Shown here piece after piece: positions 7,200 to 58,637 of a DNA stretch of 64,000 nt. Position 1 is the first letter of the stretch. Each line of letters starts with the position of its first letter. Origin of the DNA: a virus; IMG/VR virus record IMGVR_UViG_3300032132_000001, positions 42,573 through 106,572 of that record; one strand, given 5' to 3'. The notes under the pieces are model-generated. The model was not told the DNA's origin. It did not search any database and worked only from the letters and a program-made list of their open reading frames with translations. A program made the translations under genes and the position numbers.

Positions 7200-7524
7200 T
7201 CTCTTCTACCCACTTGAGGAAAGATGCTTTCATTGCAGGTTTGTTGTTTGTGTACTGGACGCATAGGCGGAACAAAGAGATGTTAGACACCATAGATGTT
7301 CCAAGCATATCTGTTTCCCTGATTTTCTTCAGCAAAAGCTGAAGCTCTGGCCTATATACGGCGATGCCTTCATCTACTTTCTTTTGGTAAGCATCGGTGA
7401 AATTTTCGCCGTCATAGTATTCACTGTCTACTGGTTGCCCTTCAGGGAAGATTGGCCTGAAGATTGTATTGATCGCATCCTCCTCGGCCTTATTCGGCAT
7501 TGGAAGGGGGAACTTGATCTCCAT
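7186..7524 (-). CDS. hypothetical protein
   Basis: track ORF. Confidence 0.4.
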   Translation of the reverse strand: MEIKFPLPMPNKAEEDAINTIFRPIFPEGQPVDSEYYDGENFTDAYQKKVDEGIAVYRPELQLLLKKIRETDMLGTSMVSNISLFRLCVQYTNNKPAMKASFLKWVEENEQR

Positions 7525-8200
7525 CTTTTTCCTTTTTCTCTGGGAGTTTCCACTCTAGGCCAGGGATCTCGAAGATGATGTCTTCGGGGCGACCACGCAT
7601 CATTTCATCCAGACAGACGTGAACAGTGCGGTGACCCTTCACCTGGAACTCTTTCTTCTGGTGATAGTGACCGAAGATCCAATACTCAGGCTTCCACCCC
7701 TCCCACTCCCACATCTGCTGGAACACAGCTTCGTTGCAGGAAACATAGTCGATCTTCAGCGCTGAGTTGGCAACCCAGGGCTTAGCGTCACTGTGGATTT
7801 CATGGGTGACCACAATACGAGGCTTGACCTCTTGGTACAAAGCCAAAGCAGCCATAGCTTGGGCGTAGGTCAGCTCTTCATCCGGCCACCAGTCCCGACC
7901 AATGGTCCGGTGCATGTGGTCGATAGAGTATCCGCCACCAGCGTAGAAGATCCCGGTGTGCTCATCGTACCCAAAATCACCAAGATAGTGGGACGCCCGC
8001 TTGCAGACCGAAGGATTGTCATGGTTGCCCCGGATGAAGCGATGCATCTTAGGATCGCGCTTTCCGAGCTTGTGCAGATTCCCACCCCGGAATAGCCCAA
8101 AGTCACCAACCTGGAGACTGTGCTTTCCTTCTTCGGTCAGTCGCTTTGTCAGCTTCCGCCATTGATTGTACTTGCCGTGCACATCACCGATGAAGATCAT
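7490..8200 (-). CDS. calcineurin-like metallophosphoesterase (PPP/ApaH-like fold)
   Basis: N-terminal IFIGDVHGK, later GNHD and GHYH metal-binding motifs. Confidence 0.7.
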   Translation of the reverse strand: MIFIGDVHGKYNQWRKLTKRLTEEGKHSLQVGDFGLFRGGNLHKLGKRDPKMHRFIRGNHDNPSVCKRASHYLGDFGYDEHTGIFYAGGGYSIDHMHRTIGRDWWPDEELTYAQAMAALALYQEVKPRIVVTHEIHSDAKPWVANSALKIDYVSCNEAVFQQMWEWEGWKPEYWIFGHYHQKKEFQVKGHRTVHVCLDEMMRGRPEDIIFEIPGLEWKLPEKKEKDGDQVPPSNAE

Positions 8201-8904
8201 TTTCCATATACCCTTCGAACGAAGTCCTCCACGAACGGTCCGATCTTATCGCTGTTGCGGTGGACTTCAAACTCGTCTAGCTTGATCGTATTTTTCTGGA
8301 TTGTAGTTTCCAGATCTGTGGAAATCTCATGCTGCCCTTGGACAACAGCTGTTTCTAAGAATTCGATTTTCACTGTGTCCCTGATCGTAGACTTGGAATC
8401 AAGATAGGCTTGCCCCATAGTCCCAGGATGAGAATACCAGATCAGAGGCATAGTCATGACCGAGATCTTCTCATCTTCGATCTGATTGACAGGAGTCATA
8501 GTCTGGAGACCCATGGCGAGCTTGAACCTCTCAATAGTCTTCTCTGCCTTTGGGAAAAGAAGACATACCAGCTGGCCTAGATGCTCATAGAGGTGGAATT
8601 CGAACCACTCGGCTGGCTTGTTTTCAGACCAGTACCGAATGTGATCTACAATCGGACCGGCATGTGAATGCACGATAACCGGATTTGAGGTGTTAGTTGC
8701 CTCATCTAGCATCCAGATGAGCGCATCACATTGTGTCAGCATCTCGTGCTTGTCTAGATCTGCTTTCTGTAGCTCCTCCTCTGAGAGAAGGTGGCCAGAT
8801 TCCCCCACTAGAAGCGGGACATAGGAGATGCAGACGTATTTTCCCTCAGGCATCGAACACTTCCTGAAATGGGCCGATGAACTGCTTATCATCGGAGGTG
8901 TCAA
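8197..8904 (-). CDS. hypothetical protein (possible hydrolase)
   Basis: track ORF; VIVHSHAGPIV segment. Confidence 0.4.
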   Translation of the reverse strand: MTPPMISSSSAHFRKCSMPEGKYVCISYVPLLVGESGHLLSEEELQKADLDKHEMLTQCDALIWMLDEATNTSNPVIVHSHAGPIVDHIRYWSENKPAEWFEFHLYEHLGQLVCLLFPKAEKTIERFKLAMGLQTMTPVNQIEDEKISVMTMPLIWYSHPGTMGQAYLDSKSTIRDTVKIEFLETAVVQGQHEISTDLETTIQKNTIKLDEFEVHRNSDKIGPFVEDFVRRVYGK

Positions 8905-9679
8905 GGATTGCGAAGATCACGTCGTGGAATGCACCATCGAACTCGCCGGTAAGGAACTCGTGGAACCATTGGGCTACATCGGCCCCGTTGTTTCCAAAGA
9001 CGCCGCACCCCCATGCACCAAGAACTAGCTGGTCCTGGCCCTTATGGACCGCAAGGGTAAGCATCTTTCGCATTCGCTCTTGCATGACCGGATCGGCTTG
9101 GTCCAGCAAGCTTTCATCCAGCGACCCCTTGTTCACCGCTGGGGTCGTCAGATAGTTGAAGTTCCTTGGGGCGATCAATTGGTCATAATCGTTCCTGAAT
9201 GTTGGAACTTCAGGAGAGAAGATCATATGATCGCTGTACAGTCTGCTCTCTGTACGATTGAAGTCGTACATCTCTTTGTGAACAGTTAGTGTGGGGTAGA
9301 GCGCAGAACCGCGCGCCAGACACTCTTCCTGCGCTTGCGCGCCACGGATGAACCCACCACCTGGATGCGTACCAGATGCGAAGTTCAAAATCATGATCTC
9401 TGCATCTTCGCCATGTCTTTCAGATAGGCGATAGGCAGCAGAGAAAGAAGATTCGTTCACCACTTGGAATTGTGTGTCGTAAGGCATCGGCTGGTCACCC
9501 AACATGCCACGCAAGTCCACTAATGTCTCAGGTCCAAGGAGCTGAGACGAATCGGTGGCCCACTCTATCGCATCTTGGATGTCATGTACCTCACCATTCA
9601 TATCCTTGTATTTTCCTTGGATGATGATGGTGAGAGTCTCTTGAGCGATTTTGGCCAACTTTCTACGTTGTTTTGTCAT
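8846..9679 (-). CDS. bacterial-type poly(ADP-ribose) glycohydrolase (PARG/DUF2263 macrodomain)
   Basis: LNFASGTHPGGGFIRGAQAQEE carries the GGG-X7-QEE PARG signature. Confidence 0.75.
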   Translation of the reverse strand: MTKQRRKLAKIAQETLTIIIQGKYKDMNGEVHDIQDAIEWATDSSQLLGPETLVDLRGMLGDQPMPYDTQFQVVNESSFSAAYRLSERHGEDAEIMILNFASGTHPGGGFIRGAQAQEECLARGSALYPTLTVHKEMYDFNRTESRLYSDHMIFSPEVPTFRNDYDQLIAPRNFNYLTTPAVNKGSLDESLLDQADPVMQERMRKMLTLAVHKGQDQLVLGAWGCGVFGNNGADVAQWFHEFLTGEFDGAFHDVIFAILDTSDDKQFIGPFQEVFDA

Positions 9680-12473: not shown

Positions 12474-12560
12474 TTCAACATGCCACGGCTCAGATCCTCA
12501 CCTCACCTTGCCGTTCCGAGCCGGGCCCTACCTAACCGAACCGCAACTTACCATACCACA

Positions 12561-13630: not shown

Positions 13631-14179
13631 TTATCGTGTCTCTCCAAACGGAGATTGCATAGGACCCCTCTCCTCGGCAAGCTCAAGGATGGGAGTCCCA
13701 TTCATCACTTGTTTCAACATGCGGTCGTACAACACCATATAGACCGCAGCGCCCAGGTTCGCACAGTGGCGAATCGGGATCTTTACGAACCGATGGCAGT
13801 GCCTCATCATCGTGGATGAAATGCTGCCATCTTCTGGGCCAAACACGTACACCGGATTCTCTGGGTGTTCAAAGTCCGTGAGCAACTCAGAGTTATCCCT
13901 CAACTCGATTGCCACCGGGGTAGACCCCTGAGGGAATTGGTCGAAGGGGAAGTCGAACTGGATCATCTCCACGTCCTTGTATCCCTTCATCCTTTCTTCT
14001 CGTGGGAGCCGCTTCTTCCCGTCCAGCCGTACACGGTTGCCCGTCCACCAGAGTTGACTCAAGCCGAAGCAAGAACATGCCCTCAACGCAGCCCCGACGT
14101 TGTGGTCGTATTTTGGGTTGGTCAGGATGATAGCCGGGGTCTTTCCCACCGGCTTCATGTTCTTGCCGACTTGTTTCAT
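13631..14179 (-). CDS. SpoU/TrmH-family RNA 2'-O-methyltransferase (SPOUT)
   Basis: ILTNPKYDHNVGAALRACSCFG and YVFGPEDGSIS motifs of the TrmH family. Confidence 0.7.
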   Translation of the reverse strand: MKQVGKNMKPVGKTPAIILTNPKYDHNVGAALRACSCFGLSQLWWTGNRVRLDGKKRLPREERMKGYKDVEMIQFDFPFDQFPQGSTPVAIELRDNSELLTDFEHPENPVYVFGPEDGSISSTMMRHCHRFVKIPIRHCANLGAAVYMVLYDRMLKQVMNGTPILELAEERGPMQSPFGETR

Positions 14180-16894: not shown

Positions 16895-16970
16895 TGGCTC
16901 CCCGAGCAGGACTTGAACCTGCGACATCCTGATTAACAGTCAGGCGCTCTACCAACTGAGCTATCGAGGA
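16895..16970 (-). tRNA. tRNA-Asn (anticodon GTT), CCA encoded
   Basis: TCCTCGATAGCTCAGTTGGTAGAGCGCCTGACTGTTAATCAGG...; loop CTGTTAA. Confidence 0.85.
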
Positions 16971-23820: not shown

Positions 23821-24399
23821 TTAGTCCTTGATGGTATACTTCTTGTAGAGTTCAACATCGTTCAGCTGACTGTGAATCTCTTCGGCCCAGAGGTGAGATG
23901 CCCCACTGCCATCCTCCCCGACACCAGGCTCGTTCTTGGAGGTCCAGACCGCGAAGTTCCAATACGGCGGGAACTTCTCATTGTTGTATCGTTGCACCAT
24001 CCCACGGAACTGCTGCCATGGGACACCGTGCTTCTGTCGGCGGTACGCCGTCATCGGATCGACCGGGATCTCAATGATTTCGTGGCCGTACCCGAAAGAG
24101 TTGGCGACCGAGATGTACGGTGCAAGCTCGATAGCACCGAGGTTCGTGTTATCCACGATCACGAACTTGAACTGGTTGCCAAGCGCTTCGATATACTTGC
24201 TCATGCATCGAGCGTGCGCTTGAGGCAGCTTGCCTCGCTTGAAGTCGTACTTCAAGCTTCCGTCTTCCTCTTCGCTGTAGAAGAAGTGGTCGGCTGACAC
24301 CACGACCACACTCCCTTTGCTTCTCTTCTCGATGATCAACTTCTTCACCAAGGTGGACTTCCCTCCACCTGGTACGCTCCTCGGCAGAATAACGTGCAT
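23821..24399 (-). CDS. P-loop kinase, polynucleotide 5'-kinase-like (AAA_33/T4 Pnk kinase-domain-like)
   Basis: Walker A PGGGKST, downstream VVSADHF and VIVDNTNL. Confidence 0.55.
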
Positions 24400-27399: not shown

Positions 27400-27656
27400 T
27401 AGTCTTTCTGATGATCTTCCGGATCTTGTTTGCCGTGGTAGATGAAGTAAGCTGTCATACCCGCAACGACCAGAGCCATAACGATCCCAATGACCATTGT
27501 GAAACCGGCTGCTTCTTGGTAGTACTTCACATCATCGAAATGGGAACATCCAGCAGCCCCTGCCCAGATGAACATCACCACGACGATTGAAGCTTTGATC
27601 AGGGTGCGGATCACTTCAAACTGTTGAGAGTGAGTCACCTTTTCAGAATAGCTCAT
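27399..27656 (-). CDS. small membrane protein (2 TM)
   Basis: track ORF. Confidence 0.45.
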   Translation of the reverse strand: MSYSEKVTHSQQFEVIRTLIKASIVVVMFIWAGAAGCSHFDDVKYYQEAAGFTMVIGIVMALVVAGMTAYFIYHGKQDPEDHQKD

Positions 27657-29020
27657 TTCAACTCCTTCTTAGCCCATTCCATGGCCGATTCTTGGTCAGC
27701 GAAGGCTCCGTCCATCTGAGCTTCGTACGCTTTCTTCAGAAATACGCCAAGCTCTTTACTAGGCTCCATCAGCCCAGCCTCGATCAGATCACGGCCGTTG
27801 AGGATTCGCTTCGCGCCTTCATTGAGCACGCGCTTCTCACTTGCGATCTCAAGCATCCGAAGGCAGTTCTCCGACTTCCCACGAGGAAGAGGGGGGCGAC
27901 CAGAGTGGTCAGCTTCACACAGCCGTGCAAGCTCTACGATGCTCGCCGGCTCCAAACGCTTGGCAAGACGACGGACAGCTCTCGACGTAGCCGCTTGGTT
28001 GTGCGCCATGTGGTTCCCGACCATGGGCAGGATCTTATCCTTGTACTTCTTGTGACACCCAATTGAGTCCAGGAACTCTTCTGCGATAGGCACACCACCA
28101 CGCTCATGACCACGTGATCTCCACCTGCCATCTTCGAACTTGGTGTACTTTGCCTTGCCGACGTCATGGCACAGAGCGGACAGCACCAACATGCCACGAT
28201 CTTCCACATCAAGCTCGTCACGGATGGCGATTTCTGCTGCGGCATCGACCACGAACTTGGTATGAGTCCAAGCGCAGCCTTCAGGATGCCACTCGGGATC
28301 CTGAGTCACTCCGATCAGAGCGGTGAGCTGCGGGTAGAGATCGAGCCAGCAGGTGTCCTCCAGGAAGACCAGGCCAGAGCTTGGTTTGATGGACTTTGTT
28401 GCCCATTTCCACCACTCTTCCCACACTCGCTCAACAGGAAGGTCTTTGTACTCATCCTTCAGCGTGTTGCAGAGATGCGACGTGTCTGCCCAGACCGCCA
28501 TGTCAAATCGCCCTGTGAACTGCATCCCTCGCAGCACACGAAGAGGATCTTCGGCGAAAGCTGGAGATGTGTGGCGGAGGAGACCGTACTCGATATCCTT
28601 CAGCCCTTTGAAGAAGTCCAGTGTCTCGCCGGTCAGTGGATCGAAGGCTAGGGCATTCATGGTGAAGTCCCTGCGAGACGCCGCTTCCTCCGGTGTCATC
28701 GTCGGGTCGGGGTCCACCATGAAGCCCTTATGCCCACGCCCTCGCTTGCTCTCTCGTCGGGGAAGAGAGACATCGAACTCAACGCCACCTTCCTTGTACT
28801 TGAGTACGCCGAAGCTCTTGCCTACCGCATCGACCTTGCCCTTAGATTCCAGGAGTTCTTGGAGCTTATCGGGGCTCATGCCGTAGACTTCGACGTCGAT
28901 GTCCTTCCAGTCCTTGTTTCCCATCTGGGAATCTCGGACGGCACCGCCCACAACCAGGACACGGGCAGCGCCGTTCTCGGTCAGGTACCGAGCTAGTTCC
29001 TTGATCTTTTTCATGTCCAT
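27653..29020 (-). CDS. cca: tRNA nucleotidyltransferase (CCA-adding enzyme), class II head domain plus HD domain
   Basis: VVGGAVRD...DIDVEV head motifs, RRDFTMNA, HD..GK; start moved to MDMKK (ATG 29018-29020) after GAGGTG. Confidence 0.8.
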   Translation of the reverse strand: MDMKKIKELARYLTENGAARVLVVGGAVRDSQMGNKDWKDIDVEVYGMSPDKLQELLESKGKVDAVGKSFGVLKYKEGGVEFDVSLPRRESKRGRGHKGFMVDPDPTMTPEEAASRRDFTMNALAFDPLTGETLDFFKGLKDIEYGLLRHTSPAFAEDPLRVLRGMQFTGRFDMAVWADTSHLCNTLKDEYKDLPVERVWEEWWKWATKSIKPSSGLVFLEDTCWLDLYPQLTALIGVTQDPEWHPEGCAWTHTKFVVDAAAEIAIRDELDVEDRGMLVLSALCHDVGKAKYTKFEDGRWRSRGHERGGVPIAEEFLDSIGCHKKYKDKILPMVGNHMAHNQAATSRAVRRLAKRLEPASIVELARLCEADHSGRPPLPRGKSENCLRMLEIASEKRVLNEGAKRILNGRDLIEAGLMEPSKELGVFLKKAYEAQMDGAFADQESAMEWAKKELK

Positions 29021-29028
29021 GTTCACCT

Positions 29029-29343
29029 CTACGACAGGAAGTCTTTGAAAGCTCTTTGCCACTGGTCCAGATCCAAGAGCTTCAGTTGGTCTTTGGGGAA
29101 CGATTTGATGCACAGATCAGGTTCGTCCAACCCGTTATGCTGGTACTTGCCTTCCTTGAAGATCAAACCAGTCACTGGCAGATCGTCTTCGATCTCCAGA
29201 TCCCACAAGTACAACTCGATGACGGTGTCTCTTGTGGCAGTCATCTCGATGGCGGAGCGAGCTTGCTCTGGAGTGATCTCCTGCATTTCTTCGAAAGGAA
29301 GCTCTTCTCCACCGCACCAAAAGTATGCAATATGCTTAGTCAT
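29029..29343 (-). CDS. hypothetical protein
   Basis: track ORF trimmed to MTKHIAYFW (ATG 29341-29343). Confidence 0.4.
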   Translation of the reverse strand: MTKHIAYFWCGGEELPFEEMQEITPEQARSAIEMTATRDTVIELYLWDLEIEDDLPVTGLIFKEGKYQHNGLDEPDLCIKSFPKDQLKLLDLDQWQRAFKDFLS

Positions 29344-35827: not shown

Positions 35828-36021
35828 TCCATCCTCATCAGCATGCTGTAGATGTCCTCTACCGACAGCTTCTTCAGTTCCTTTCGCTTCTCACCAGGGA
35901 AGTGTGCCTTCCCCGGCTCACTCAGGATCATGGCTATCGCCTTCTGACGGAACGCCGTGAGGCATTCCTGTCGGTACAGCTCCACGGCTTCGTTTAGTTG
36001 ATCTGCGAGCCAGACGTCCAT
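35824..36021 (-). CDS. hypothetical protein
   Basis: track ORF. Confidence 0.4.
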   Translation of the reverse strand: MDVWLADQLNEAVELYRQECLTAFRQKAIAMILSEPGKAHFPGEKRKELKKLSVEDIYSMLMRME

Positions 36022-37178
36022 TAAGCATCTTCTCCTTCGTCGTGGAACGCGATGCCGCCGGTCGGCTTCAACATCTTCCAGATCTGCTCCTCGATCATCC
36101 GTCCGTCCAGCAAGCTGAACATGAGATGAGGATGGGTGCAGTTTTCCTTGATGTAGAGCGCTTGATCCTTCCGAGTGTCGGTCGGACCCTGAGGGACCTT
36201 CTTGATCTCGTTGGACGCCGCGAACCGGATCCGGTGAGCCGCCTCGTACAAGCCCATCGCCGTCTCAGTGAGCCAGTGATGGAACTCGTCCGGAACATCG
36301 ACGCCCAGGAGGATGTCCTCCTTGACCGTACCACCAGTCTTGAGGACTTCCCAGATCCGGCGAGGGGTCAGACCACAGAGGAGCTTGTGGCGGATCTTGT
36401 ACCACTCGAACTTGATCTTGATCCGCTGACCCGACGAGAACTTGAGGACGAAGCCCTCTCGGTTCTCTTCGTCCATCGCGTCGAGCTGAGCCGGGGTGAG
36501 GTGTTCGAGATCGTACCGCTTGCAGATCTCGAATAGCTGCTCGTTCTCCTGGTCTAGCCCAGTTGTACCATGCTGGATGCTCGTTTCACCCCAGGTGACG
36601 AATGTCGCCAGCTGCTCATAGGGGACTTCTGAACCGGACTCGGTGTGAATCACGGTCAGGAGGGTGAGCTTAGTGTTCGGACCGTAGTCAACCACGATCT
36701 GAGGCCGACCACCTTCCTTGGCGTAGATCACCTCGAAAAGGTAGGTGTAGTCGTGATGGAAAACGTCTTGAGGAAGAGCGTGGGCCGGGCAACAAACCCG
36801 GAGCAATTCTTCCCGACCGATCACCGATTGGTCCGAAGTGAAGCTACCTCGGGTCGCCGTCACCAGCTCACCCTTGTAGACGCAGGCGATGAACAGCGAA
36901 CCGTCCATCTTCTCCATCACCTCGAAGGTCTCGTTGGGTGCTTCCACCTCACCGAGGTTGAAGAACTTGCCGAAAGGACGTCCAACGATCTCCTTCGGCT
37001 TCCCGGTCTTCTCGGGGTCGGTCGTGATGAGACCGCGACACGTCTTGGTCGCCGCGTTCCACACCCGATCGAACTGCGTCTTTGGCGTGTAGTTGTGAAT
37101 GAGGAGAGGGAGGGTCGGATGGACCTGGGTCTTGATAAACCCTTCCTCTATCATCTTGTCAATCAGTTCCCAGTCCAT
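36021..37178 (-). CDS. ATP-dependent RNA ligase, T4 Rnl1 (gp63) family
   Basis: CRGLIT..GRPFGKFFNLGE...MEKMDGSL...EGFVLK...KIKFEWY align with Rnl1 CRGIMF..RPMEKFFNL..KEDGSL..EGYVAV..KIKSDWY; start MDWELIDK at 37176-37178 after GGAG. Confidence 0.8.
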   Translation of the reverse strand: MDWELIDKMIEEGFIKTQVHPTLPLLIHNYTPKTQFDRVWNAATKTCRGLITTDPEKTGKPKEIVGRPFGKFFNLGEVEAPNETFEVMEKMDGSLFIACVYKGELVTATRGSFTSDQSVIGREELLRVCCPAHALPQDVFHHDYTYLFEVIYAKEGGRPQIVVDYGPNTKLTLLTVIHTESGSEVPYEQLATFVTWGETSIQHGTTGLDQENEQLFEICKRYDLEHLTPAQLDAMDEENREGFVLKFSSGQRIKIKFEWYKIRHKLLCGLTPRRIWEVLKTGGTVKEDILLGVDVPDEFHHWLTETAMGLYEAAHRIRFAASNEIKKVPQGPTDTRKDQALYIKENCTHPHLMFSLLDGRMIEEQIWKMLKPTGGIAFHDEGEDA

Positions 37179-37452: not shown

Positions 37453-38133
37453 CTAGCCGTGCGTTCTCTTCATCTTCGCCAGCGGCTCGCTGCCATGCTT
37501 CATCGGGTCGTTGAAGTTGGTGGTGTGTCCACCTTCTGGGTTGCGATCCCAAGCGATGCAGTGCCGGATGACGTCCCGAAGGTCGCACATCTTCTTGGCC
37601 TCGTCGGGGACTTCGGGACTGGCGATGCCATAGAAGGCTGATCCGAGAGTGGGGAAGACAATTCCCTTCAGCTCTGCAAGCAGATCATCGACTCGACGCC
37701 AATCGATAGCGCCGAACGAATCACCCCGAAGCATGCTTCGGTGACGCATGACTGCTGCGATTTCACCGAGCTGTCCCATCATCAACCGATAGTACAAGTC
37801 CAACGCCCGATTGATGACGTCACCCTGTGTGCCGGTGATGGTGAGCTGGTATTCGCCCACTTCTTTTGCCTTTCTCCGTGTTCTTGCCTTGGGCGAGCAA
37901 CCCCAAGCCTCTGGAGTCAGCAGTGCGAACTCCATGTTGTCGAAGACCTCATCTTCGACAACAGCCCTTTTCTCCCCGGTGGCGCGATTCTGGATCATCG
38001 CCTCACCACTGGTGATGTGCGATAGGACATCGTCCACACGCTCATCACCAGGTGGGATGTAGAACACACCATGAAGCAAGTGAGCAAGCAGCACTGATAC
38101 TTGTACTCTCTGCACCATCTTGGGTTCCGTCAT
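37453..38133 (-). CDS. hypothetical protein
   Basis: track ORF. Confidence 0.45.
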   Translation of the reverse strand: MTEPKMVQRVQVSVLLAHLLHGVFYIPPGDERVDDVLSHITSGEAMIQNRATGEKRAVVEDEVFDNMEFALLTPEAWGCSPKARTRRKAKEVGEYQLTITGTQGDVINRALDLYYRLMMGQLGEIAAVMRHRSMLRGDSFGAIDWRRVDDLLAELKGIVFPTLGSAFYGIASPEVPDEAKKMCDLRDVIRHCIAWDRNPEGGHTTNFNDPMKHGSEPLAKMKRTHG

Positions 38134-38657: not shown

Positions 38658-39068
38658 CTAGATGCAGTCGGCTTCCGACACGTCCGCACCGCCGTCCTCG
38701 ATCCGCTCGACCGTAGCCGAGACGAGAGCGATCGGGGTGGCCTTGTAGACGCGCTTACCCTTCTTGCCACCGACGCCAATCTTCGCCGCCTTACGCATAC
38801 GATCCCAGGCCGTCTGACCGGCTTCGTCCTGGTGATGCCGCCAGATGCCGACATCCTGCATGCGGAGCGTCGCTTCCTTCTTGTCCTTGAACCGGACAAC
38901 GAGGAGCAGATGGAAGTTACCCGGACGCGAGCCCAGGTGACCCTTCGGCGAACCGGCCAGACGCAGCAACTCCTGCAGGTTACAAACCCGCATCTGCTTC
39001 TGATCGTGCTCGACGATAGCTTCGGTAGTGTCGAACTTCAGGAAACCAACAGTCTTCTTCGAAGGCAT
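38658..39068 (-). CDS. P-family paralog 4 (MPSKKTVGFLKF leader, HHQDEAG core, acidic tail)
   Basis: track ORF. Confidence 0.5.
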   Translation of the reverse strand: MPSKKTVGFLKFDTTEAIVEHDQKQMRVCNLQELLRLAGSPKGHLGSRPGNFHLLLVVRFKDKKEATLRMQDVGIWRHHQDEAGQTAWDRMRKAAKIGVGGKKGKRVYKATPIALVSATVERIEDGGADVSEADCI

Positions 39069-39266
39069 GGGAACTCCATGTTCTTAGGCGAAGAAGTCCT
39101 ACTGGAGGCGGGACCTCCCCGCCCAACCTAGCTTCCCCTGCTCAAGCTTGAGCGGGGATTTGTGTCCCACAACATGTGGGAGCACAACATTCGGCCGTGA
39201 GACCGAATGCTGTTGACATTGACACAACGCCGATCGACGAGTGCCTGTCAACATGCCACGAATGGC

Positions 39267-39342
39267 TGGCGGGTCATACGGGATTTGAACCCGCAACACA
39301 CGGTTTTAGAGACCGTTGCTCTACCAATTGAGCTAATGACCC
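39267..39342 (-). tRNA. amber-suppressor tRNA (anticodon CTA, reads UAG), class I, CCA encoded
   Basis: GGGTCATTAGCTCAATTGGTAGAGCAACGGTCTCTAAAACCGTGTGTTGCGGGTTCAAATCCCGTATGACCCGCCA; perfect 5-bp anticodon stem ACGGT/ACCGT, loop CTCTAAA. Confidence 0.75.
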
Positions 39343-39658
39343 AGGAGGAGTGGTGGACCTTTCTCATCAACCGAAGGTGAAGAGCCTAGGTTCACCCCCG
39401 ACGCGGATACTCGATTAAGTGGACCCCGTAGCAACGACGACACACCCCCACCACTCCTTGACTAAGAAGAAAGAAGAGCCGACCTTCAGGTGAGAAGACG
39501 TATAACAAACTTGTCCCCCTTTACCGGTCACTCACCCCGGCGATCAACCCAGAGCGGATCAGGAACTTAGGCGGGCTCGGACGTCTCCCTCGGCTCTTCC
39601 TTCCAATACGCCGCAGCCCGACCCCCATACAGCAGGGTCGGGCATTGGCTAGGAGTTG

Positions 39659-40528
39659 TTAGGCCGTCTTGCGACCCTTCTTCCCCTCACGCTTCTCGGC
39701 GGCGATGATCTCGAACGCCTCGTACAGCGCGTTCTTCTTCCGCGCCACCTTGCTGCGCTGTCGTGGCGGGCTCTCGATCTGCAGCAGGTGCCGCCAGCCG
39801 GCGGGGGTGAGTCCGCTTGCCGTGGGCTGTCCACTGCTGGGACGCTCGAACATGACGGGCATCTGTGCGGCCCGCGCGTCACGCCGCGCCTGCGCTTCCA
39901 CCTCACGCGCCTCGCGGCGCAGAGCGTCACGCTCCCGCTTCTTCTCCTGCCGGGACACGTCGTCCTCGGCCAGCCGCTTGGCCAGCATCGGCTTCGCGCC
40001 GCCGTGGTGGAGTCCGCGCTTGACGCACAGCTCCTTCAGCTTGCCGGTCGCGTCCTTCTCGTACCGCTTGGCGAACTTCGCCACCAGCTTCTGCCGCTTC
40101 CGCCGATCCTTCTCCTCCTGGCTGATGCCGGGACGGAAGAAGCGGTCGCAGTAGAACCGCAGCTGGCTGTCGGAGAGGGAGGCCGGTCCCCACCCCTTCG
40201 GTGCGTCTTCGACGTTGCAGAACAGCGTCCTCTTCAGCGCGGCGATCTTGTCGCTCTCCATGCGGAGCGCGAACAGGAGCGCCTTCCGCTCCAGCGGGTC
40301 GCCCTTCTTGACCGCCCGCACGCCCTGGACCAGGACGAGCTTCGCGATCTCCTTGGCGGCCTGGTTCTGGCCACTGGCCTTCTTCGCCTCGGCGATACGC
40401 TGCGCCTTCGACGGGCCGGTCTTCTGCGGAGCGGCCTGCTGGTTGCTCCGCTTCTTCCGACGCGCCTTCTTCCGCTCGCGACCCAGCTTTCCCTTCTCTG
40501 CGTGCTGCTTCTCGTTCTTCGACGACAT
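39659..40528 (-). CDS. highly basic Lys/Arg/Ala-rich hypothetical protein
   Basis: track ORF in locally GC-richer DNA; preferred over antisense ORF 39656..40582. Confidence 0.45.
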   Translation of the reverse strand: MSSKNEKQHAEKGKLGRERKKARRKKRSNQQAAPQKTGPSKAQRIAEAKKASGQNQAAKEIAKLVLVQGVRAVKKGDPLERKALLFALRMESDKIAALKRTLFCNVEDAPKGWGPASLSDSQLRFYCDRFFRPGISQEEKDRRKRQKLVAKFAKRYEKDATGKLKELCVKRGLHHGGAKPMLAKRLAEDDVSRQEKKRERDALRREAREVEAQARRDARAAQMPVMFERPSSGQPTASGLTPAGWRHLLQIESPPRQRSKVARKKNALYEAFEIIAAEKREGKKGRKTA

Positions 40529-40670
40529 GTCATTCCCCTGGTAGGGACTTCTCGGTTACAACGCCCACAGTTGGGCAATTGATTCATTGTTCGGTTGACC
40601 AGGGTTGGACACAGCACGCTTCCAACAGCTTGTATCCCGTCCCAACATGGGACGGGCACAAGCCAAGGAA

Positions 40671-42254: not shown

Positions 42255-42497
42255 TCACTCTCCTTTGCAGCGGAAGGGGATCTTGGAGCAACCGAAGAGT
42301 ACGTTGCCGAAGATCAGGTACCAGTGGAGCCCGTCCTTGACAGCCGAGTTCAGCATGATCCCAACCAGCGTGTCGGCGCACATGGAGTTGGTTTTCCCTC
42401 CACCGTCTCCGTTGTCGTAGTAGGCGGTCAAGTGGTGGCCGATGCTATCCTTGATCTCGGCCACAGTTGACACCCCACTGTGCAGCTCGCGGCTCAT
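42255..42497 (-). CDS. hypothetical protein
   Basis: track ORF. Confidence 0.35.
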   Translation of the reverse strand: MSRELHSGVSTVAEIKDSIGHHLTAYYDNGDGGGKTNSMCADTLVGIMLNSAVKDGLHWYLIFGNVLFGCSKIPFRCKGE

Positions 42498-42928
42498 GCT
42501 TCCGCCCCGATCAGCTTACCGTCGAGATGGTCCATCTCGTGCTGCATCACCCTGGCTTCCCACGGTGACTGGGACTGGTGCCGCTTCTTCCGTCCCTTGG
42601 AGTCCTCGTACTCGATGAGGACGATGGGGAAGCGCAACACCTTGACGGCCCTGTCGGGGAGGGAGAGGCAGCCTTCGATGGCGTACTCCCGCTTGCCCCT
42701 GGCCCTGTGCAACACAGGGTTGAAGAAGACGCGTTCCATCCCCTTCACCCCACTGGCGTTCATCACGAAGAACCGCCGAGTGATGCCAACCTGCGGTGCG
42801 GCCAGACCAGCTCCGTTCGCCGCATACATCAGGCCGATCATCTCACGGACGGTATCGTCGTGGACGCTTGGATCCGCATGGGAGCACACTTGCTCCAGCA
42901 CAGGATCCGGATGGATGACGATTTTCAT
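42494..42928 (-). CDS. def: peptide deformylase
   Basis: GxGLAAPQVG, EGCLSLP and HEMDHL motifs; start MKIVIHPD at 42926-42928 behind GGAGG. Confidence 0.85.
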   Translation of the reverse strand: MKIVIHPDPVLEQVCSHADPSVHDDTVREMIGLMYAANGAGLAAPQVGITRRFFVMNASGVKGMERVFFNPVLHRARGKREYAIEGCLSLPDRAVKVLRFPIVLIEYEDSKGRKKRHQSQSPWEARVMQHEMDHLDGKLIGAEA

Positions 42929-43006
42929 CCTGGATTCCTCCTGTAGAGTCCTTTTCCAACAGGCTAAACCCCGTCCCAACATGGGACGGGCTTCAACCCT
43001 TGCCGA

Positions 43007-44920: not shown

Positions 44921-45006
44921 CTTTCATCTCCTTTGGATGAGTTCTGTGTCAACTACGCTAAACCCGATCCCGCCAACATGGCACGGGATCGGGCAAGCGC
45001 AACAGA

Positions 45007-49100: not shown

Positions 49101-49400
49101 ATGAACCCAGATGAGATAGCCAAGATCCTCACAGAAGACCCAGACGTCCTGAATGAGATCTCATTCCCAGGTGAGGAACATGATGAATACCAAAGAGGGA
49201 AAGAAGTAGCAGCGGATATGGTACGTCATCTAAAACAGTTGCATATCGACGAGCCTGTCGAATCCACTGTTGAAGAAGATCTTCAAGATAATCTACATAG
49301 AGCAGAAGAAGCAGCCCGTACAGCAGAATTTGAAGAAAAAGAGATGTATTACCGAGGCATAGCGGATTTCATAAAGAACTACTTAGGTCGCACAGAATAA
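49101..49400 (+). CDS. PDEIAKILTEDPDVL-leader family member 1
   Basis: N-terminus MNPDEIAKILTEDPDVLNE. Confidence 0.45.
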   Translation: MNPDEIAKILTEDPDVLNEISFPGEEHDEYQRGKEVAADMVRHLKQLHIDEPVESTVEEDLQDNLHRAEEAARTAEFEEKEMYYRGIADFIKNYLGRTE

Positions 49401-49754: not shown

Positions 49755-50086
49755 TGAAGATACTAAGCTACGACGGCCTGGCGCCACCAGAGAAAGTGAG
49801 ACTCAGGATGGTCTCTATAAAGGGTCAGAACTACGAAGTCCACGAAAACCAAGAAATATGCGACCCAGAATATTCCCCAGACGGCATCGTAATGACAGTA
49901 GAGGATGGTTCTTGGCTTAGTGCTGGGGATGTAGTGTTCTGTTCCTCCTTCATTTGGGAGAGGGAGAGCGGGAAACTCTACAAAGCTAAGATTGTAACTG
50001 GTGGCCATAAGGGTAGTCTGGGGGAAGAACTAACCTGCCCAGAAACTATAGAAGAAGCCAAAGCAATAATAGCTAGAGATTTGTAG
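49754..50086 (+). CDS. DP-motif family member (ICDPEYSPDGIVMTVED)
   Basis: track ORF. Confidence 0.5.
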   Translation: MKILSYDGLAPPEKVRLRMVSIKGQNYEVHENQEICDPEYSPDGIVMTVEDGSWLSAGDVVFCSSFIWERESGKLYKAKIVTGGHKGSLGEELTCPETIEEAKAIIARDL

Positions 50087-50463
50087 TGTACGAAGACTAC
50101 CACCTAATCAATACGCTCAGGAAGCACTGCGGCCATTTACCCCACGATACCTTCCCACGACATGGGAAGTGGATCCTCATCACCGTAGGTAAGTGGAAGA
50201 ATAATGGAGAGTGGGGGAGTGGGAGGAGCGCGGCGGGGCACCCTAGGTTCGAGGAATACGCGCTAGACGCCCTAGAAGTGATAGATCCCAACTTCGATCC
50301 AGACATAATACTAGTACAGATAAATCATGGGGATCAGCCCGCTCACCAGATGAGTAACTTCGTGGTGGACGCTAGGACGATGGAAGTACGGCGTTACCCA
50401 GATGACCTAGTAGACACCGAAACTGCGCAAATAATAAAAGAGCTGTTGGCTAAGCATCTGTAG
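50086..50463 (+). CDS. DP-motif family member (VIDPNFDPDIILVQIN)
   Basis: track ORF. Confidence 0.5.
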   Translation: MYEDYHLINTLRKHCGHLPHDTFPRHGKWILITVGKWKNNGEWGSGRSAAGHPRFEEYALDALEVIDPNFDPDIILVQINHGDQPAHQMSNFVVDARTMEVRRYPDDLVDTETAQIIKELLAKHL

Positions 50464-50487
50464 GGTCCCATCGAGTATGTAACCTAC

Positions 50488-50835
50488 ATGCTCGGAAAAC
50501 AAATCCTACGTGACTTAGCCAACATCAACGGACGCTCCCAGGGTTACGGTGGGTGTCAGAAATGTGAAGACTGCTGGAGTTGGAAGGCAGGTTTCCACAT
50601 AACCTACTGGGAGTGCCCTAACGGGTCAGGTAATGCTAAAGGTGCCTTCCCGGTATGTGAAGAATGCGTTAAGGACATGTCGAACTACGAGCTTCTCAAG
50701 CAGCTACTGGTACACTTCATCAAGGGCAACGCTAGCTTGATCGAGTCGGGGTTAGACCCCAGACCAGTAGAAGAGATCTCAGAGAACCTTACGTTCGCTA
50801 AGCATTGGTTAGATAGGGCGAGACCCGGCAGATGA
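50488..50835 (+). CDS. Cys-rich hypothetical protein
   Basis: track ORF. Confidence 0.45.
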   Translation: MLGKQILRDLANINGRSQGYGGCQKCEDCWSWKAGFHITYWECPNGSGNAKGAFPVCEECVKDMSNYELLKQLLVHFIKGNASLIESGLDPRPVEEISENLTFAKHWLDRARPGR

Positions 50836-51044
50836 ACAAGCGACCATTCTTCATAATCCCCATCCTCCTCTTAGTTCTCTTCCTCCCTCCTTTATTCTTC
50901 CTAGCCGAAATCGGCCATGAGGCACAGACTGCTCCTAGGTGCCCAGAGTGCATGGAGAGAGTAGAGAAGTATGCTAGGAAGTGTCCAGCTTGCTTGTCTA
51001 CCTTCACTAAGCCCACGTCTAGAGAGGAAAGGGAAGGTGGGTAA
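50832..51044 (+). CDS. small membrane protein with C-terminal CPEC...CPAC zinc ribbon
   Basis: track ORF. Confidence 0.45.
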   Translation: MNKRPFFIIPILLLVLFLPPLFFLAEIGHEAQTAPRCPECMERVEKYARKCPACLSTFTKPTSREEREGG

Positions 51045-51465
51045 GTTAGACTTCCTACATTGGGTAGAGAGTAGGGAGCATTGGGTACACCTAGAGAACC
51101 ATCTCCGACGCCAACTGCGGCATAGAGAGGGCCCTAGGAGACATCTTTATGGTGCGGAATATACTCGATATCTTGACGAGATTGACCAGAACTATAAAGA
51201 GCACATCGCCCGACCTGACTTCAAGCCCGACGCTATTATGTTGTCGGAGAAAGTGAGGCTTGAGGGTAGGCTCTACACCACAGACAAGTATTGGGTGTGG
51301 TGCCAGAAGATCGATAGAGTGTTCGACGGGTGGATCTACGGGGACAACGGCGACCACGACATTGTCCGCAAATACCCGGCGCCGTATGAGAAAGGCGTCT
51401 TCGTAGATTGGACATGGGCCGAGGATGAGGAACACTACAAGAACCTCATTTCCTCCCTGCTATAG
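51037..51465 (+). CDS. DP-motif family member (IARPDFKPDAIMLSEKV)
   Basis: GTG 51037 in frame of track ORF 50971..51465. Confidence 0.4.
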   Translation: MGKLDFLHWVESREHWVHLENHLRRQLRHREGPRRHLYGAEYTRYLDEIDQNYKEHIARPDFKPDAIMLSEKVRLEGRLYTTDKYWVWCQKIDRVFDGWIYGDNGDHDIVRKYPAPYEKGVFVDWTWAEDEEHYKNLISSLL

Positions 51466-51477
51466 CAAACGTATAGT

Positions 51478-51732
51478 ATGGATCCAGATAAAATAGCAGA
51501 ATTGATCAGTGATGATCCCGACGTTTTGCAAGAAAGCGATGATATTGCTCGATTGGAAGGCGATCTAGATTATGAGATTAGGCGATTAGCCTGGATGAAA
51601 AAGCAGTTGAAGGAATTTTTGGTATCGGGTGAAACTACATCTCTACTAAAATTCCCCGGCGCAGAAAAAGCCAAGAAAGCTATTGCGCTAACACAAAAGA
51701 AAATTGCCGATCTAAAGAGCCGGCTACTCTAG
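51478..51732 (+). CDS. PDEIAKILTEDPDVL-leader family member 2 (MDPDKIAELISDDPDVLQE)
   Basis: track ORF. Confidence 0.45.
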   Translation: MDPDKIAELISDDPDVLQESDDIARLEGDLDYEIRRLAWMKKQLKEFLVSGETTSLLKFPGAEKAKKAIALTQKKIADLKSRLL

Positions 51733-54166: not shown

Positions 54167-54561
54167 ATAATCTACCAATCCAAATAGATCTCATCACTGC
54201 CGTCAAGGTGTACTTTCAGGATATGGGGTATACTTGTCGGGATCTTACTGATGGTGAAGCCGGCTGGCCTGAACCTAAATCGTTTACTATAGAAGCATGG
54301 AGAAGCGATTTGGATGTCCTGTTTTGGGATTATAGAGAGCGAAGAGGGTTAATAACCGCAGCTCAAGACCCGTCTGGATTCAGTAAAGGGTCTCCCCATC
54401 TCAAGATAGCGATGAAAGCTTGGCTCATTGTCCAAGTACGTAAACAAGAAGCATACGTAATGAAGAATAGATATGGACCACCCCATGGGGTGTACCAATG
54501 TGCTGATCCGGAATTCTTCGATCAGCTGAACGAATTAGTTGTTAGCACTATGGACCGGTAA
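54163..54561 (+). CDS. hypothetical protein
   Basis: track ORF. Confidence 0.45.
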   Translation: MNNLPIQIDLITAVKVYFQDMGYTCRDLTDGEAGWPEPKSFTIEAWRSDLDVLFWDYRERRGLITAAQDPSGFSKGSPHLKIAMKAWLIVQVRKQEAYVMKNRYGPPHGVYQCADPEFFDQLNELVVSTMDR

Positions 54562-54562
54562 A

Positions 54563-55216
54563 ATGAACAAACACGACGGGCAGATCTGGTTTACTTCAGA
54601 TCCGCATTTCAATCACGGAAATATCATCAAGTACTCTATGCGCACCCCCTTCATGAACAAGGCGGAGCTAGAGGTGATGACTACTGGTACCAAAGAGGAG
54701 CAGAAAAAGCTCCGTATCAGCAGAGAGTCAATCAATCTGATGAACACTACCATGATCGACAACATCAACTCTGTCGTCGATGCTGGTGACCACCTAGTAT
54801 GTCTAGGTGACTGGGTAATGGGTAAGAATGTTGCGCAGACCGCTAAAGAGTTCCGCGACAGGATCCACTGTAAGCGGATCGATCTTATCTGGGGCAACCA
54901 TGATAAGCATGTAATCGGCAACAACTTCGATCGGACTTCCCATCTCCACCGCTATAAGTGGGAGTGGAATGGTGAGGTGATCCGCCTAGTGGCTTGCCAC
55001 TATGCTATGCGGATATGGGATGGGTCCCATCGTGGTGTACTACACCTATATGGCCATTCTCACGGTGCACTGAAGGAAGATCTCCACGCGCGCTCGTTCG
55101 ATTGTGGTGTAGACAGCTGGGGCTACATGCCGATCAACACGGATACTATCCTCAAAAAGATGGCGACTAAGACGTTCAAGCCCATTGACCATCATGGGAA
55201 GCGCGACCAAAAATAG
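54563..55216 (+). CDS. metallophosphoesterase (second calcineurin-like phosphoesterase in window)
   Basis: DPHFNHGN...GDHLVCLGDW...GNHD...GHSHG. Confidence 0.65.
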   Translation: MNKHDGQIWFTSDPHFNHGNIIKYSMRTPFMNKAELEVMTTGTKEEQKKLRISRESINLMNTTMIDNINSVVDAGDHLVCLGDWVMGKNVAQTAKEFRDRIHCKRIDLIWGNHDKHVIGNNFDRTSHLHRYKWEWNGEVIRLVACHYAMRIWDGSHRGVLHLYGHSHGALKEDLHARSFDCGVDSWGYMPINTDTILKKMATKTFKPIDHHGKRDQK

Positions 55217-55219
55217 TGT

Positions 55220-56080
55220 ATGACACCTGAAGAACTGGCGAAGCTCCTCACCGACGACCCTGACGTCCTCGCTGAGGCTGGAAAGAAAGGCAGATCAGCT
55301 CACCGCCGCGCTAGAAGGAAGAAGGAACGTCGGCGCGCGAAGAGACAAGAGCGTGAGATGCAATACCAAGTTGATCGCCCTCGTAGCGGTAGGAAAGTAC
55401 CCCGCTCCCCAGCTAAAAAGGAGCTAAGGGGTATTGAGCGCTCTGCTCGCCGTGAATTACGCCGCGCTGACGAGCCCGCAGCTGACACTGAAAACATTGA
55501 AGCTACTAAGTTCGCTGAACTTACTCGTGACTTCAAGATTATGAGTGCCAGCGAGCTAAATCAAGAGCATAGTCACATCCAGGGATTCATAGACGACCTT
55601 ACAAGCGACATGGAAACTGGCGATGTAAGTCAAGCGATAGGTGCTGCGGAACTAAGGGCGGCATATAAGGCCGCAAGACTTGCTACTCAACTTCGGGACA
55701 GGAAAACGCCAGAATACGAAGCAGAACTTAACAAGCAACGCAGAGAGAACCCACCAGACATGGCTCCTGCTGGGTCCCAGAAATGGCGTGGAAGACCATC
55801 TATTGACCCTGAATTCCAGGATTGGGATCCGGAAGATAGGTTCAATTACGTCAACCGATATAAGACCGACCAACAAGTAAAGAAGAGGAGCGGTGAGTCT
55901 GTTCGCGGTGACGGCTACGAGCGCAGGGAACCTGTGATGGTAGATGATGAGGGGGAGTGGGTAGAAGGCGAGTACGTCGAGTACGATGATCGGTACGACA
56001 AACCACACCTAATCAAGATGACCCCGCAAGCAGAGCCGGAACCTGAGCCAGATAGTCCACTTGAGCTTGAGCCAGAATAA
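55220..56080 (+). CDS. PDEIAKILTEDPDVL-leader family member 3 with long basic-then-acidic extension
   Basis: MTPEELAKLLTDDPDVLAE. Confidence 0.45.
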   Translation: MTPEELAKLLTDDPDVLAEAGKKGRSAHRRARRKKERRRAKRQEREMQYQVDRPRSGRKVPRSPAKKELRGIERSARRELRRADEPAADTENIEATKFAELTRDFKIMSASELNQEHSHIQGFIDDLTSDMETGDVSQAIGAAELRAAYKAARLATQLRDRKTPEYEAELNKQRRENPPDMAPAGSQKWRGRPSIDPEFQDWDPEDRFNYVNRYKTDQQVKKRSGESVRGDGYERREPVMVDDEGEWVEGEYVEYDDRYDKPHLIKMTPQAEPEPEPDSPLELEPE

Positions 56081-57871: not shown

Positions 57872-58176
57872 CTGGCACTTTCACGACCATTGAGCTTCCA
57901 GAAGACCCCCATGTCACACCTCTCCCAATCGCCCTTCTGAAGCGTGTTGGTGGTCAGTATAGGGAGGTTCTAGAAGAGGAAGCTGGCGACCCTGACTTCA
58001 ATCCAGTTGCCATCCTATATGGGACTGGCCAAATCATGTTCCTAGATGACGAATCGGTGTGGGAAGCCCACTACGAAGATAGGAATCATGATGGCACACA
58101 CAACTGGTCTATTCGCAGGAGAATAGATCCGCCACTCGATGCTGCTATCAGAGCCTACATCAAGAAATCGCTATGA
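57868..58176 (+). CDS. DP-motif family member (AGDPDFNPVAILYGTG)
   Basis: track ORF. Confidence 0.5.
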   Translation: MTGTFTTIELPEDPHVTPLPIALLKRVGGQYREVLEEEAGDPDFNPVAILYGTGQIMFLDDESVWEAHYEDRNHDGTHNWSIRRRIDPPLDAAIRAYIKKSL

Positions 58177-58637
58177 ACAAAGGGACTATCCAAGGTAAGC
58201 TCAAGCTCTATAAGGACCCACTGCTCCCAGATCAGAAAATCCTTATGAGCTTCAAGGGCAAGTCTGTCATGCCCGCTGGATATTTCTACGCTCCCTACCT
58301 AACCAAGTATGCACCAATGAGCGACCCAATAAAGATCGGCCACGCCTGGTGGCGTATCATATGCTTCCTAACCCTTGACAGATCTGAGTACCACTCTAGA
58401 CGATACCTCGTCCTGGATGGTGAGACACACCATCCAGATTATTCCCCACGCGGGATAGTACTAGAGAAATCCAGCGGGGATGGCGTTGCTAGATGTGAAT
58501 ATGTGATAGATTTCCACTTGGAGAATGCCTATCACGCCGGGACCACTTGGACCAAACGAAACCAAAAGGTCTATTACCCTCGGGCCGAAGCTGTGCAGCC
58601 AGAATTGGTCTTCCACGCCCTGAGCGTGCTTCTGTGA
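58173..58637 (+). CDS. DP-motif family member (HHPDYSPRGIVLEKSS)
   Basis: track ORF. Confidence 0.5.
   Translation: MNKGTIQGKLKLYKDPLLPDQKILMSFKGKSVMPAGYFYAPYLTKYAPMSDPIKIGHAWWRIICFLTLDRSEYHSRRYLVLDGETHHPDYSPRGIVLEKSSGDGVARCEYVIDFHLENAYHAGTTWTKRNQKVYYPRAEAVQPELVFHALSVLL

Follow-up and report, generated by a model that had tools for sequence, protein, structure and literature searches.

The 64,000-nucleotide stretch of viral DNA analysed here, positions 42,573 to 106,572 of the IMG/VR record IMGVR_UViG_3300032132_000001 (hereafter the window), contains a genuine, structurally intact elongator tRNA gene with the anticodon CUA. By its sequence this tRNA is an amber suppressor, since a CUA anticodon is complementary to UAG and would pair with it. 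In the sequence around it, TAG is a frequent and genuine terminator. As TAG serves as the normal stop for about one third of the visible genes, the CUA tRNA is no sign of a rewritten genetic code. We favour, with moderate confidence, the explanation that it is a suppressor of low efficiency or of restricted timing within a genome that follows the standard code, an incipient or auxiliary element whose readthrough is tolerated, and not an established decoder of code 15. The visible sequence, that is, the window together with extensions at its edges, amounts to about 81 kb or about 20% of a contig of 397,419 bp, and approximately 316 kb of that contig, late genes included, lie outside it.

The CUA tRNA gene and its fold

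The gene is located on the minus strand at positions 39267 to 39342. It is a class I tRNA gene of 76 nucleotides (GGGUCAUUAGCUCAAUUGGUAGAGCAACGGUCUCUAAAACCGUGUGUUGCGGGUUCAAAUCCCGUAUGACCCGCCA) with G73 as discriminator base and an encoded CCA end. An earlier note on this DNA had claimed a tRNA at exactly these coordinates, with no strand stated, and both ARAGORN and the Rfam family RF00005 return it there. ARAGORN reads the anticodon as cta, from position 34 on; the label "tRNA-Pyl" that it attaches signifies a CUA anticodon and nothing more. In a search of the whole window with RF00005 (gathering score 29), the gene obtains 72.6 bits with E = 6e-14, a mid-range value beside the other nine tRNAs of the window, which score between 54 and 77 bits. 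The covariance model therefore accepts the cloverleaf, and the anticodon frame is unchanged. The cloverleaf is also the minimum free energy (MFE) fold of the sequence, with -28.1 kcal/mol and a z-score of -3.55, and none of 200 shuffled sequences was as stable.

The acceptor stem is formed by seven out of seven pairs (GGGUCAU/AUGACCC) and the D stem by four (GCUC/GAGC), the latter closing a standard D loop of 8 nucleotides with G18G19. They are followed by a perfect anticodon stem of five pairs (ACGGU/ACCGU), a variable loop of 5 nucleotides (GUGUU) and a T stem, GCGGG/CCCGU, that includes the pair G49-U65. The anticodon loop of 7 nucleotides reads C32 U33 C34 U35 A36 A37 A38, with U33 and a purine at position 37; the anticodon itself, C34 U35 A36, is encoded on the minus strand at 39307 to 39309, complementary to TAG on the plus strand. 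All 21 stem pairs are intact and the full set of conserved nucleotides is present (U8, A14, G18G19, A21, U33, G53, U54U55C56, A58 and C61). The sequence and the MFE fold thus bear out the cloverleaf that had been described earlier (a 7/7 acceptor stem, a 4-bp D stem, the anticodon stem ACGGT/ACCGT, a T arm and CCA), and the loop CUCUAAA together with the ARAGORN call does so for a CUA at positions 34 to 36 that reads UAG.

ARAGORN finds ten tRNAs in the window, every one of them on the minus strand. The CUA tRNA had been said to stand alone, and it does: the nearest other tRNA gene, for Asn (16895-16970), is 22 kb distant, and the intergenic region that houses the CUA tRNA measures 590 nucleotides. 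The slot is conserved in a relative represented by the contig L259, Ga0129284_10075762 of JGI sample 3300009514, where a tRNA gene is found at the syntenic position (L259:1463-1489, GGGCTGTTAGCTCAGTGGTCAGAGCGG), after an orthologue of the 289-residue protein that is encoded upstream of the CUA tRNA; the two proteins are 58% identical.

TAG as a stop codon in the visible region

Stop codons were counted with our own codon-model gene caller, and the gene calls that came with the loci served as a second, independent set. The former gives 41 TAA, 40 TAG and 37 TGA stops over 118 genes, the latter 47, 38 and 44 over 129 genes, with a standard-code coding fraction of 0.80 to 0.94. In the run of our own caller that was used for comparison with other phages, TAG ends 42 of the 120 genes in the window, and its overall share is about 30-35%. 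This share amounts to 26%, 40% and 32% of the genes in three blocks of the window. Outside the window, the use of TAG as a stop is uneven, with 1 of 18 genes on the left (L002:10869-20315) versus 7 of 14 on the right (L003:1-7261); the low count on the left is not matched by a depletion of the trinucleotide there.

Reading TAG as sense makes the gene calls worse: their score drops from 2567 under the standard code to 2097, and the density, which is 0.78 under the standard code, falls to 0.71. Reassignment of TAA (score 2212) or of TGA (1821) does similar harm. The alignment of the PTH2 protein runs to the very end of the Pfam model, with TAG immediately after it, and no Pfam domain extends across TAG in the six in-frame TAG junctions that were scanned as fusions. 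The window has a GC content of 53%, and the TAG trinucleotide occurs out of frame 7.5 times per kb. TAG stops show neither a bias of the +4 base nor an excess of back-up stops after them, and a search of the visible region for release factor or aminoacyl-tRNA synthetase genes found none. A related contig, L257, also ends two of its four complete genes in TAG, and for this reason the heavy use of this stop looks like a property of the lineage.

Taken as a whole, these observations show that the visible sequence is not TAG-recoded. Stop-codon recoding, with which the earlier note had associated the tRNA, is consequently unsupported in this region: TAG ends about a third of the genes, no domain spans it, and the gene calling with TAG as sense that had been suggested as a check speaks for the standard code. 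The second proposal, an escape from host translation shutoff, has found no specific support.

Two kinds of candidate readthrough were considered and rejected. Neighbouring genes that are joined in frame via a sole stop include six TAG, two TAA and no TGA pairs. The TAG-joined neighbours are not hidden single genes, as their Pfam domains stop short of every junction and the downstream open reading frames have starts and domains of their own. The gene at 37453-38133 has a longer orthologue in L257, and the 17-codon extension that readthrough would add to it is unrelated to the tail of that orthologue.

Comparison with other phages carrying CUA tRNAs

A search of public contigs with the anticodon arm, in which CUA was kept fixed, yielded 3 loci from IMG/VR and 8 from metagenomes, that is, 11 environmental loci with the exact arm, one of them on a contig of 376,608 bp. 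Among cultured jumbo phages, a CUA tRNA is present in Sinorhizobium phage Phosso, as the gene annotated "tRNA-Undet(nnn)" (L007:19995-20070, corresponding to PV764938.1 171983-172058), and in Stenotrophomonas phage CM1, which has a CUA and a UUA tRNA (L005:23809-23884 and 27710-27784, OP883945.1). The same arm with CUA is thus shared by no fewer than four phage lineages other than the present one, and CM1 and Phosso have CUA tRNAs as well; this type of tRNA is therefore a recurrent kind of suppressor and not a one-off.

The genes around these other CUA tRNAs hardly ever end in TAG. With our own caller, TAG is the stop of none of 75 genes in CM1, of 2 of 50 in Phosso and of none of 90 in the six longer environmental loci; a control jumbo phage that has no CUA tRNA uses it in 7 of 35. 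Out of frame, TAG occurs only 1 to 2 times per kb in the environmental comparison loci, versus 7.5 per kb here. Among the CUA-tRNA loci analysed, the present phage is an outlier. The published route to recoding leads from low GC or TAG depletion to the acquisition of a suppressor and then to recoding of late genes (Borges 2021, among others). The comparison phages fit this route, and the present phage does not, since a TAG-rich window of 53% GC is at odds with a low-GC, TAG-depleted starting point.

Some further features of the comparison loci deserve mention. The standard-code coding density around the CUA tRNA of CM1 is only about 0.65. Three environmental phage contigs, one of them that of 376,608 bp, have two different CUA tRNAs 250 to 400 nucleotides apart (L130:983-1381, L133:142-612 and L134:6373-6732); in each pair, G73 goes with a Trp-like body and A73 with a body of another kind, and these loci have no TAG stops. 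In-frame TAG codons in L134 were rejected as proof of recoding, being located upstream of obvious Met starts.

A mosaic of tRNA-Trp and tRNA-Lys

As judged from its sequence, the CUA tRNA is a mosaic in which Trp-like positions 26 to 65 and G73 are set on an acceptor stem of the Lys(CUU) type. In a search that allowed any anticodon, this anticodon arm and variable loop came with CCA, the Trp anticodon, in 115 of 119 sampled viral tRNAs. Conversely, the 5' half (25 nucleotides) and the 3' acceptor strand are identical to those of bacterial tRNA-Lys(CUU): all 118 matches, from Polyangiaceae, Desulfovibrionaceae, Alicyclobacillus and others, have CTT and A73. The T arm and position 73, which were constrained by neither search, give a log-likelihood ratio of +11.3 bits toward Trp, where the Trp reference set has a mean of +13.6 and the Lys set a mean of -13.4 with a maximum of 0.5. 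G73 is found in 50 of the 52 unique CCA references, and A73 in all 65 Lys references.

Neither parent accounts for the whole molecule. Of the features expected of a Trp derivative, the anticodon stem, the variable loop, the T arm and G73 are present, whereas the pair 1-72 is G1-C72 and not the A1-U72 of 43 of the 52 Trp references. A derivative of tRNA-Lys(CUU) would explain the acceptor stem and the D arm, yet not G73 and the Trp-type remainder. A ranking against the tRNAs of E. coli genomes was of no help for the assignment: it favours Lys and Arg since the acceptor and T arms match, which the Lys-type acceptor stem explains. Over unconstrained positions, the core is 89% similar to a CCA tRNA-Trp versus 83% to the best CUA tRNA, and none of the fetched loci is a genomic relative. 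The best full-length match in the phage database, at 81% identity, is really a bacterial tufA-tRNA-Trp-secE locus. The contig L004 (CAKLQF020000005.1 1-20743), which is filed as "Acinetobacter phage MD-2021a", has the gene order tufA-tRNA-Trp-secE-nusG-rplKAJL-rpoBC and is bacterial, not phage.

The anticodon CUA is one substitution away from CCA (Trp, position 35) and likewise from CUU (Lys, position 36). As either parental anticodon is only one base from CUA, the amino acid carried is ambiguous: the sequence makes Gln, Lys and Trp all possible. According to published work, the bacterial tryptophanyl-tRNA synthetase (TrpRS) depends on the CCA anticodon, G73 and the 1-72 pair; the E. coli tRNA-Trp(CUA) has lost recognition by TrpRS and is charged by the glutaminyl enzyme (GlnRS); and the lysyl enzyme (LysRS) readily mischarges amber suppressors derived from tRNA-Trp. 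The identity elements G73 and G1-C72, which the earlier note had picked out for predicting the amino acid, are indeed there, but amid mosaic Trp and Lys signals they do not single out one.

What the suppressor may be for

If the tRNA is a weak or temporally restricted suppressor, as we are inclined to think, it would be transcribed with the leftward gene block and then trimmed. The CCA end is encoded in the gene, and a phage CCA-adding enzyme is encoded nearby. The tRNA would be charged by a host synthetase keyed on U35 or on the tRNA body; GlnRS seems the most likely because of the analogy with E. coli tRNA-Trp(CUA), and LysRS or TrpRS are possible. Once charged, it would compete with release factor 1 at UAG; on this explanation the tRNA is probably functional, albeit weak. 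In accordance with it, the tRNA is canonical and intact, CUA tRNAs of this type are recurrent across phages, TAG is a genuine and common stop, the visible region has no release factor or synthetase gene, and the genome displays no visible adaptation to suppression, be it a +4 bias or a surplus of back-up stops.

Several points weigh against it. The G1-C72 pair is unfavourable for TrpRS and GlnRS of the E. coli type, and charging could be poor or absent. The visible fifth of the genome contains no late or structural genes, and the contig of the relative L259 stops 27 nucleotides into the syntenic tRNA, ahead of its anticodon. Finally, all eight other CUA-tRNA loci analysed have, taken together, 2 TAG stops in 215 genes versus 42 in 120 here (Fisher p = 4e-19). 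Genomes in which such tRNAs are established do adapt, and a tolerated suppressor in the present one therefore looks either unstable or very recent.

It seems unlikely that the tRNA serves a recoding of late genes, although published work explains phage suppressor tRNAs in this way (Borges 2021; Yutin 2021). In such a partial code 15, the suppressor would be made from an early or middle region in which TAG is still a stop, before the tRNA accumulates. The visible sequence does resemble an early or middle region, with its tRNAs, RNA repair genes, many small open reading frames and no structural genes, and the left-right unevenness of TAG stops would suit a partial code, as would the recurrence of this tRNA family in phages that have been purged of TAG stops. 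Those very phages, however, have no TAG stops even near the tRNA, where the present phage uses TAG for 30-35% of its genes. A GC content of 53% and an abundance of TAG in all frames are the opposite of the low-GC, TAG-depleted precursor, and the visible region has no "code-change module" of release factor or synthetase genes.

A private mutation of the anticodon, or a gene that is non-functional, is another unlikely explanation. The gene would then be an ordinary tRNA-Trp (C35->U) or tRNA-Lys(CUU) (U36->A) with no selected role, arisen as a recent point change in the lineage, a population variant or an error in the consensus, and it may be poorly charged. A single substitution from either parent would suffice, and the visible 81 kb contain neither a tRNA-Trp(CCA) nor a tRNA-Lys(CUU). 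The lack of genome adaptation is also what one would expect, and at 89% of unconstrained core positions shared with a CCA tRNA-Trp the gene is as near to an ordinary tRNA as it is, at 83%, to the best CUA tRNA. Moreover, the two available assemblies, with 100% identity between them, may not be independent of each other. Yet the gene is flawless in its 21 stem pairs and all conserved positions, its combination of a Lys-type acceptor with G73 matches neither parent exactly, and Trp-type CUA tRNAs are recurrent and evidently selected in other phages. A consensus error that falls precisely on an anticodon base is improbable.

Programmed genome-wide readthrough is a poor candidate. It would extend or fuse the products of TAG-ended genes, or corrupt TAG-ended proteins of the host, and so act either as a switch in time or as a device against the host; the idea of readthrough directed against the host has been published (Yutin 2021). 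At 8 of 13 TAG junctions with a short gap the next gene is in frame, versus one third expected; the neighbours joined in this way lie on the minus strand at 43969->42494, 35827->34970, 14839->13631 and 33367->31904, and on the plus strand at 50086-50835, 50971-51732 and 54539-56080. The first of these is a chain in which three genes have only TAGs between them, the last being the deformylase gene. In-frame open extensions are also longer after TAG, with a median of 21 codons against 9 to 13 (p = 0.014). These statistics are weak, given the small numbers and the several tests made. The downstream reading frames have their own starts and encode independent domains (SpoU, deformylase, T4_Y16D), the extensions outside the in-frame pairs score negative for coding, and at the one junction that is comparable with a relative the extension is not conserved.

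It could also be imagined that the suppressor is conserved and functional and that TAG is deliberately kept, so that the onset of the tRNA would switch about one third of the phage proteins, and TAG-ended host ones as well, to extended or fused forms, the in-frame TAG-joined neighbours among them; we consider this quite improbable. The role that such a mirror image of the late-gene model might have, either as a global temporal switch or as a termination back-up when release factor 1 is limiting, is equally speculative and has little likelihood. Nor is there much to commend the corollary that the mosaic Trp/Lys body is an adaptation that sets the inserted amino acid.

A pyrrolysine tRNA, suggested by the ARAGORN label and by the CUA anticodon only, is effectively refuted by the anatomy: tRNA-Pyl has a short D loop that lacks G18G19, an elongated anticodon stem and a variable loop of 3 nucleotides, whereas the present tRNA has a canonical 8-nucleotide D loop with G18G19, an anticodon stem of 5 pairs, a 5-nucleotide variable loop, a T loop of the TΨC type and the RF00005 score given above, and no pylS- or pylBCD-like gene is seen in the Pfam annotations of the visible region.

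Flanking sequences and a recurrent motif

On its 5' side, the CUA tRNA is preceded by a gene for a protein of 289 residues with no assigned function (39659 to 40528, minus strand, stop TAA) and by a leader of 316 nucleotides (39343 to 39658, fold z = -2.85). A hairpin at about 39603-39652, just past the stop of this gene, is approximately 90% conserved in L259 (L259:1124-1170), and the alignment with this contig reveals more conserved blocks in the leader. On the 3' side, a structured flank of 198 nucleotides with about five hairpins (39069 to 39266) separates the tRNA from the next gene on the same strand, which encodes 136 residues with no assigned function and ends in TAG (38658 to 39068). 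The fold of this flank has an MFE of -100.5 kcal/mol (z = -6.66) that was reached by none of 200 shuffles. A search for homologues of the 136-residue protein among 5.8 billion proteins returned only itself; no second contig of the relative was recovered through this gene, and no IMG/VR match to the syntenic tRNA of L259.

The tRNA had been described as lying between two hairpin terminators. Both flanks are rich in hairpins, but neither of them has a hairpin followed by a U-run on the tRNA strand; in the sole terminator-like site, at 39136-39157, the T-run belongs to the other strand. A sigma-70-like promoter was looked for near the tRNA and not found, and Rfam assigned no family to its surroundings, nor any theta- or HDV-like ribozyme, even at permissive thresholds.

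Copies of a 14-mer motif had also been reported beside the tRNA, in substance rightly: the motif, CGT[GC][GC]CATGTTGG, is 13 nucleotides long, and one copy, a variant ending in TTGA, is located at 39248 to 39260 on the minus strand, 6 nucleotides 3' of the CCA end. One hairpin of the 3' flank bears a second CATGTTG loop. There are 20 copies of the motif between 3.8 and 46.9 kb (3821-46881); every one is on the minus strand, oriented as the genes are, and the plus strand has none; examples besides that at 39248-39260 are found at 44973-44985, 42976-42988, 40642-40654 and 12475-12487. Most are situated 1 to 22 nucleotides past a stop codon and several about 46 to 53 nucleotides ahead of the next start, and many form the loop or the 3' half of a GC-rich hairpin. 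Two tRNAs are abutted by copies, one copy ending 1 nucleotide 5' of tRNA-Leu(GAG) and the other being that beside the CUA tRNA. The relative L257 has the motif as well (at about 945-960). It is a candidate for a phage promoter, a processing signal or a signal at cistron boundaries.

Genome setting

The source of the DNA fits a huge phage, an identification that we infer from the tRNA arrays, the T4-type RnlA ligase and T4 ORFan families, and the contig of 397,419 bp. This contig occurs in JGI, ENA and Logan. DNA-level relatives of the window were found neither among GenBank phages nor in IMG/VR. The window is matched at 100% identity by a Logan assembly of SRR9663116 (L001), which was counted as non-independent.

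The visible region encodes a considerable number of tRNA- and translation-linked proteins, namely a Thg1-like guanylyltransferase, PTH2, a metallophosphatase, PARG, a SpoU methylase, a DUF5662 protein, a CCA-adding enzyme, a T4-type RnlA ligase, an AAA_33 kinase-like protein and a peptide deformylase, in addition to proteins of T4 ORFan families. Genes for tRNA and translation maintenance are located on the minus strand at 1309-1683, 6378-7199, 7490-8200, 8846-9679, 13631-14179, 23821-24399, 27653-29113, 36021-37178 and 42494-42928. The set of PTH2, Thg1, metallophosphatase, PARG, SpoU, AAA_33, CCA-adding enzyme, RnlA and deformylase resembles a module for tRNA repair and takeover of translation. 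About 5.5 to 5.7 kb to the left of the window start, a pair of tRNAs for Met(CAU) and Ile(UAU) is found (L002:16350-16576); a tRNA-Ile with a UAU anticodon is uncommon in bacteria.

A search of the visible 81 kb for structural genes found none. A Pfam match to Gp23 at 58173-58637 was rejected as a late gene, as it covers a stretch of 41 residues in a small paralogous protein. Small paralogous genes on the plus strand are found at 49101-49400, 51478-51732, 55220-56080 and 58173-58637, and the products of the first three start with M-x-P-[DE]-x-[IL]-A-x-[IL]-[IL]-[ST]-[DE]-DPDVL. This N-terminal stretch probably explains the misleading Gp23 match in the fourth. A conserved element AAC[CG]TA[CT] is present a few bases ahead of the ATG at 49101 and at 51478, and as AACCTAC at the unrelated 50488.

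Relation to known systems

A phage suppressor tRNA is usually read as a marker of recoding, and the present case shows that this marker can mislead. For annotation, it is a warning not to switch to code 15 on a tRNA call alone; the Trp/Lys mosaic illustrates, in addition, that a phage suppressor need not have a clear-cut isotype. An active tRNA would represent either the very first step of a code change, taken despite its predicted cost, or a use of suppression that is unrelated to recoding.

The code-15 phages, which comprise crAss-like, Lak and other gut or jumbo phages (Ivanova 2014; Yutin 2021; Borges 2021/2022), likewise have a canonical phage CUA tRNA among early or middle and translation genes in the standard code. 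They differ in being low in GC and depleted of TAG stops, with in-frame TAGs in late genes, whereas here the GC content is 53% and TAG ends about a third of the genes. Suppressor tRNAs that occur with no apparent reassignment (Yutin 2021; Borges 2021) offer a closer parallel, as there, too, the genome, so far as it is visible, makes good sense under the standard code. They have been proposed to represent an incipient code change or readthrough directed against the host (Yutin 2021). In those cases the genomes are poor in TAG or TGA and the cost is low, whereas here TAG is a co-dominant stop and the cost should be high.

With the E. coli suppressor su+7 (supU), a tRNA-Trp(CUA), the present tRNA has in common a Trp-type body, the change C35->U and G73. 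The former is a laboratory mutant with the A1-U72 acceptor of the Trp type; the latter is natural and phage-encoded, and its acceptor, from G1-C72 to U7-A66, is that of tRNA-Lys(CUU). The tRNAs of Phosso, CM1 and the environmental loci (L127 to L137) share with it the loop CUCUAAA and, for the most part, G73. The core of the environmental tRNAs is 86-91% identical to it over 55 to 60 nucleotides, and the Phosso tRNA is 79.5% identical over the whole molecule. The CUA tRNAs of Phosso and CM1 lie among genes for RNA ligase, aminoacyl-tRNA synthetases and peptidyl-tRNA hydrolase. In all these comparison phages, TAG stops number between 0 and 2, the acceptor stems are unrelated to that of the present tRNA, and there is no protein similarity to the window. 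Phage suppressor tRNAs as such are well known; what is unusual here is the combination of a TAG-rich context and a mosaic Trp/Lys body.

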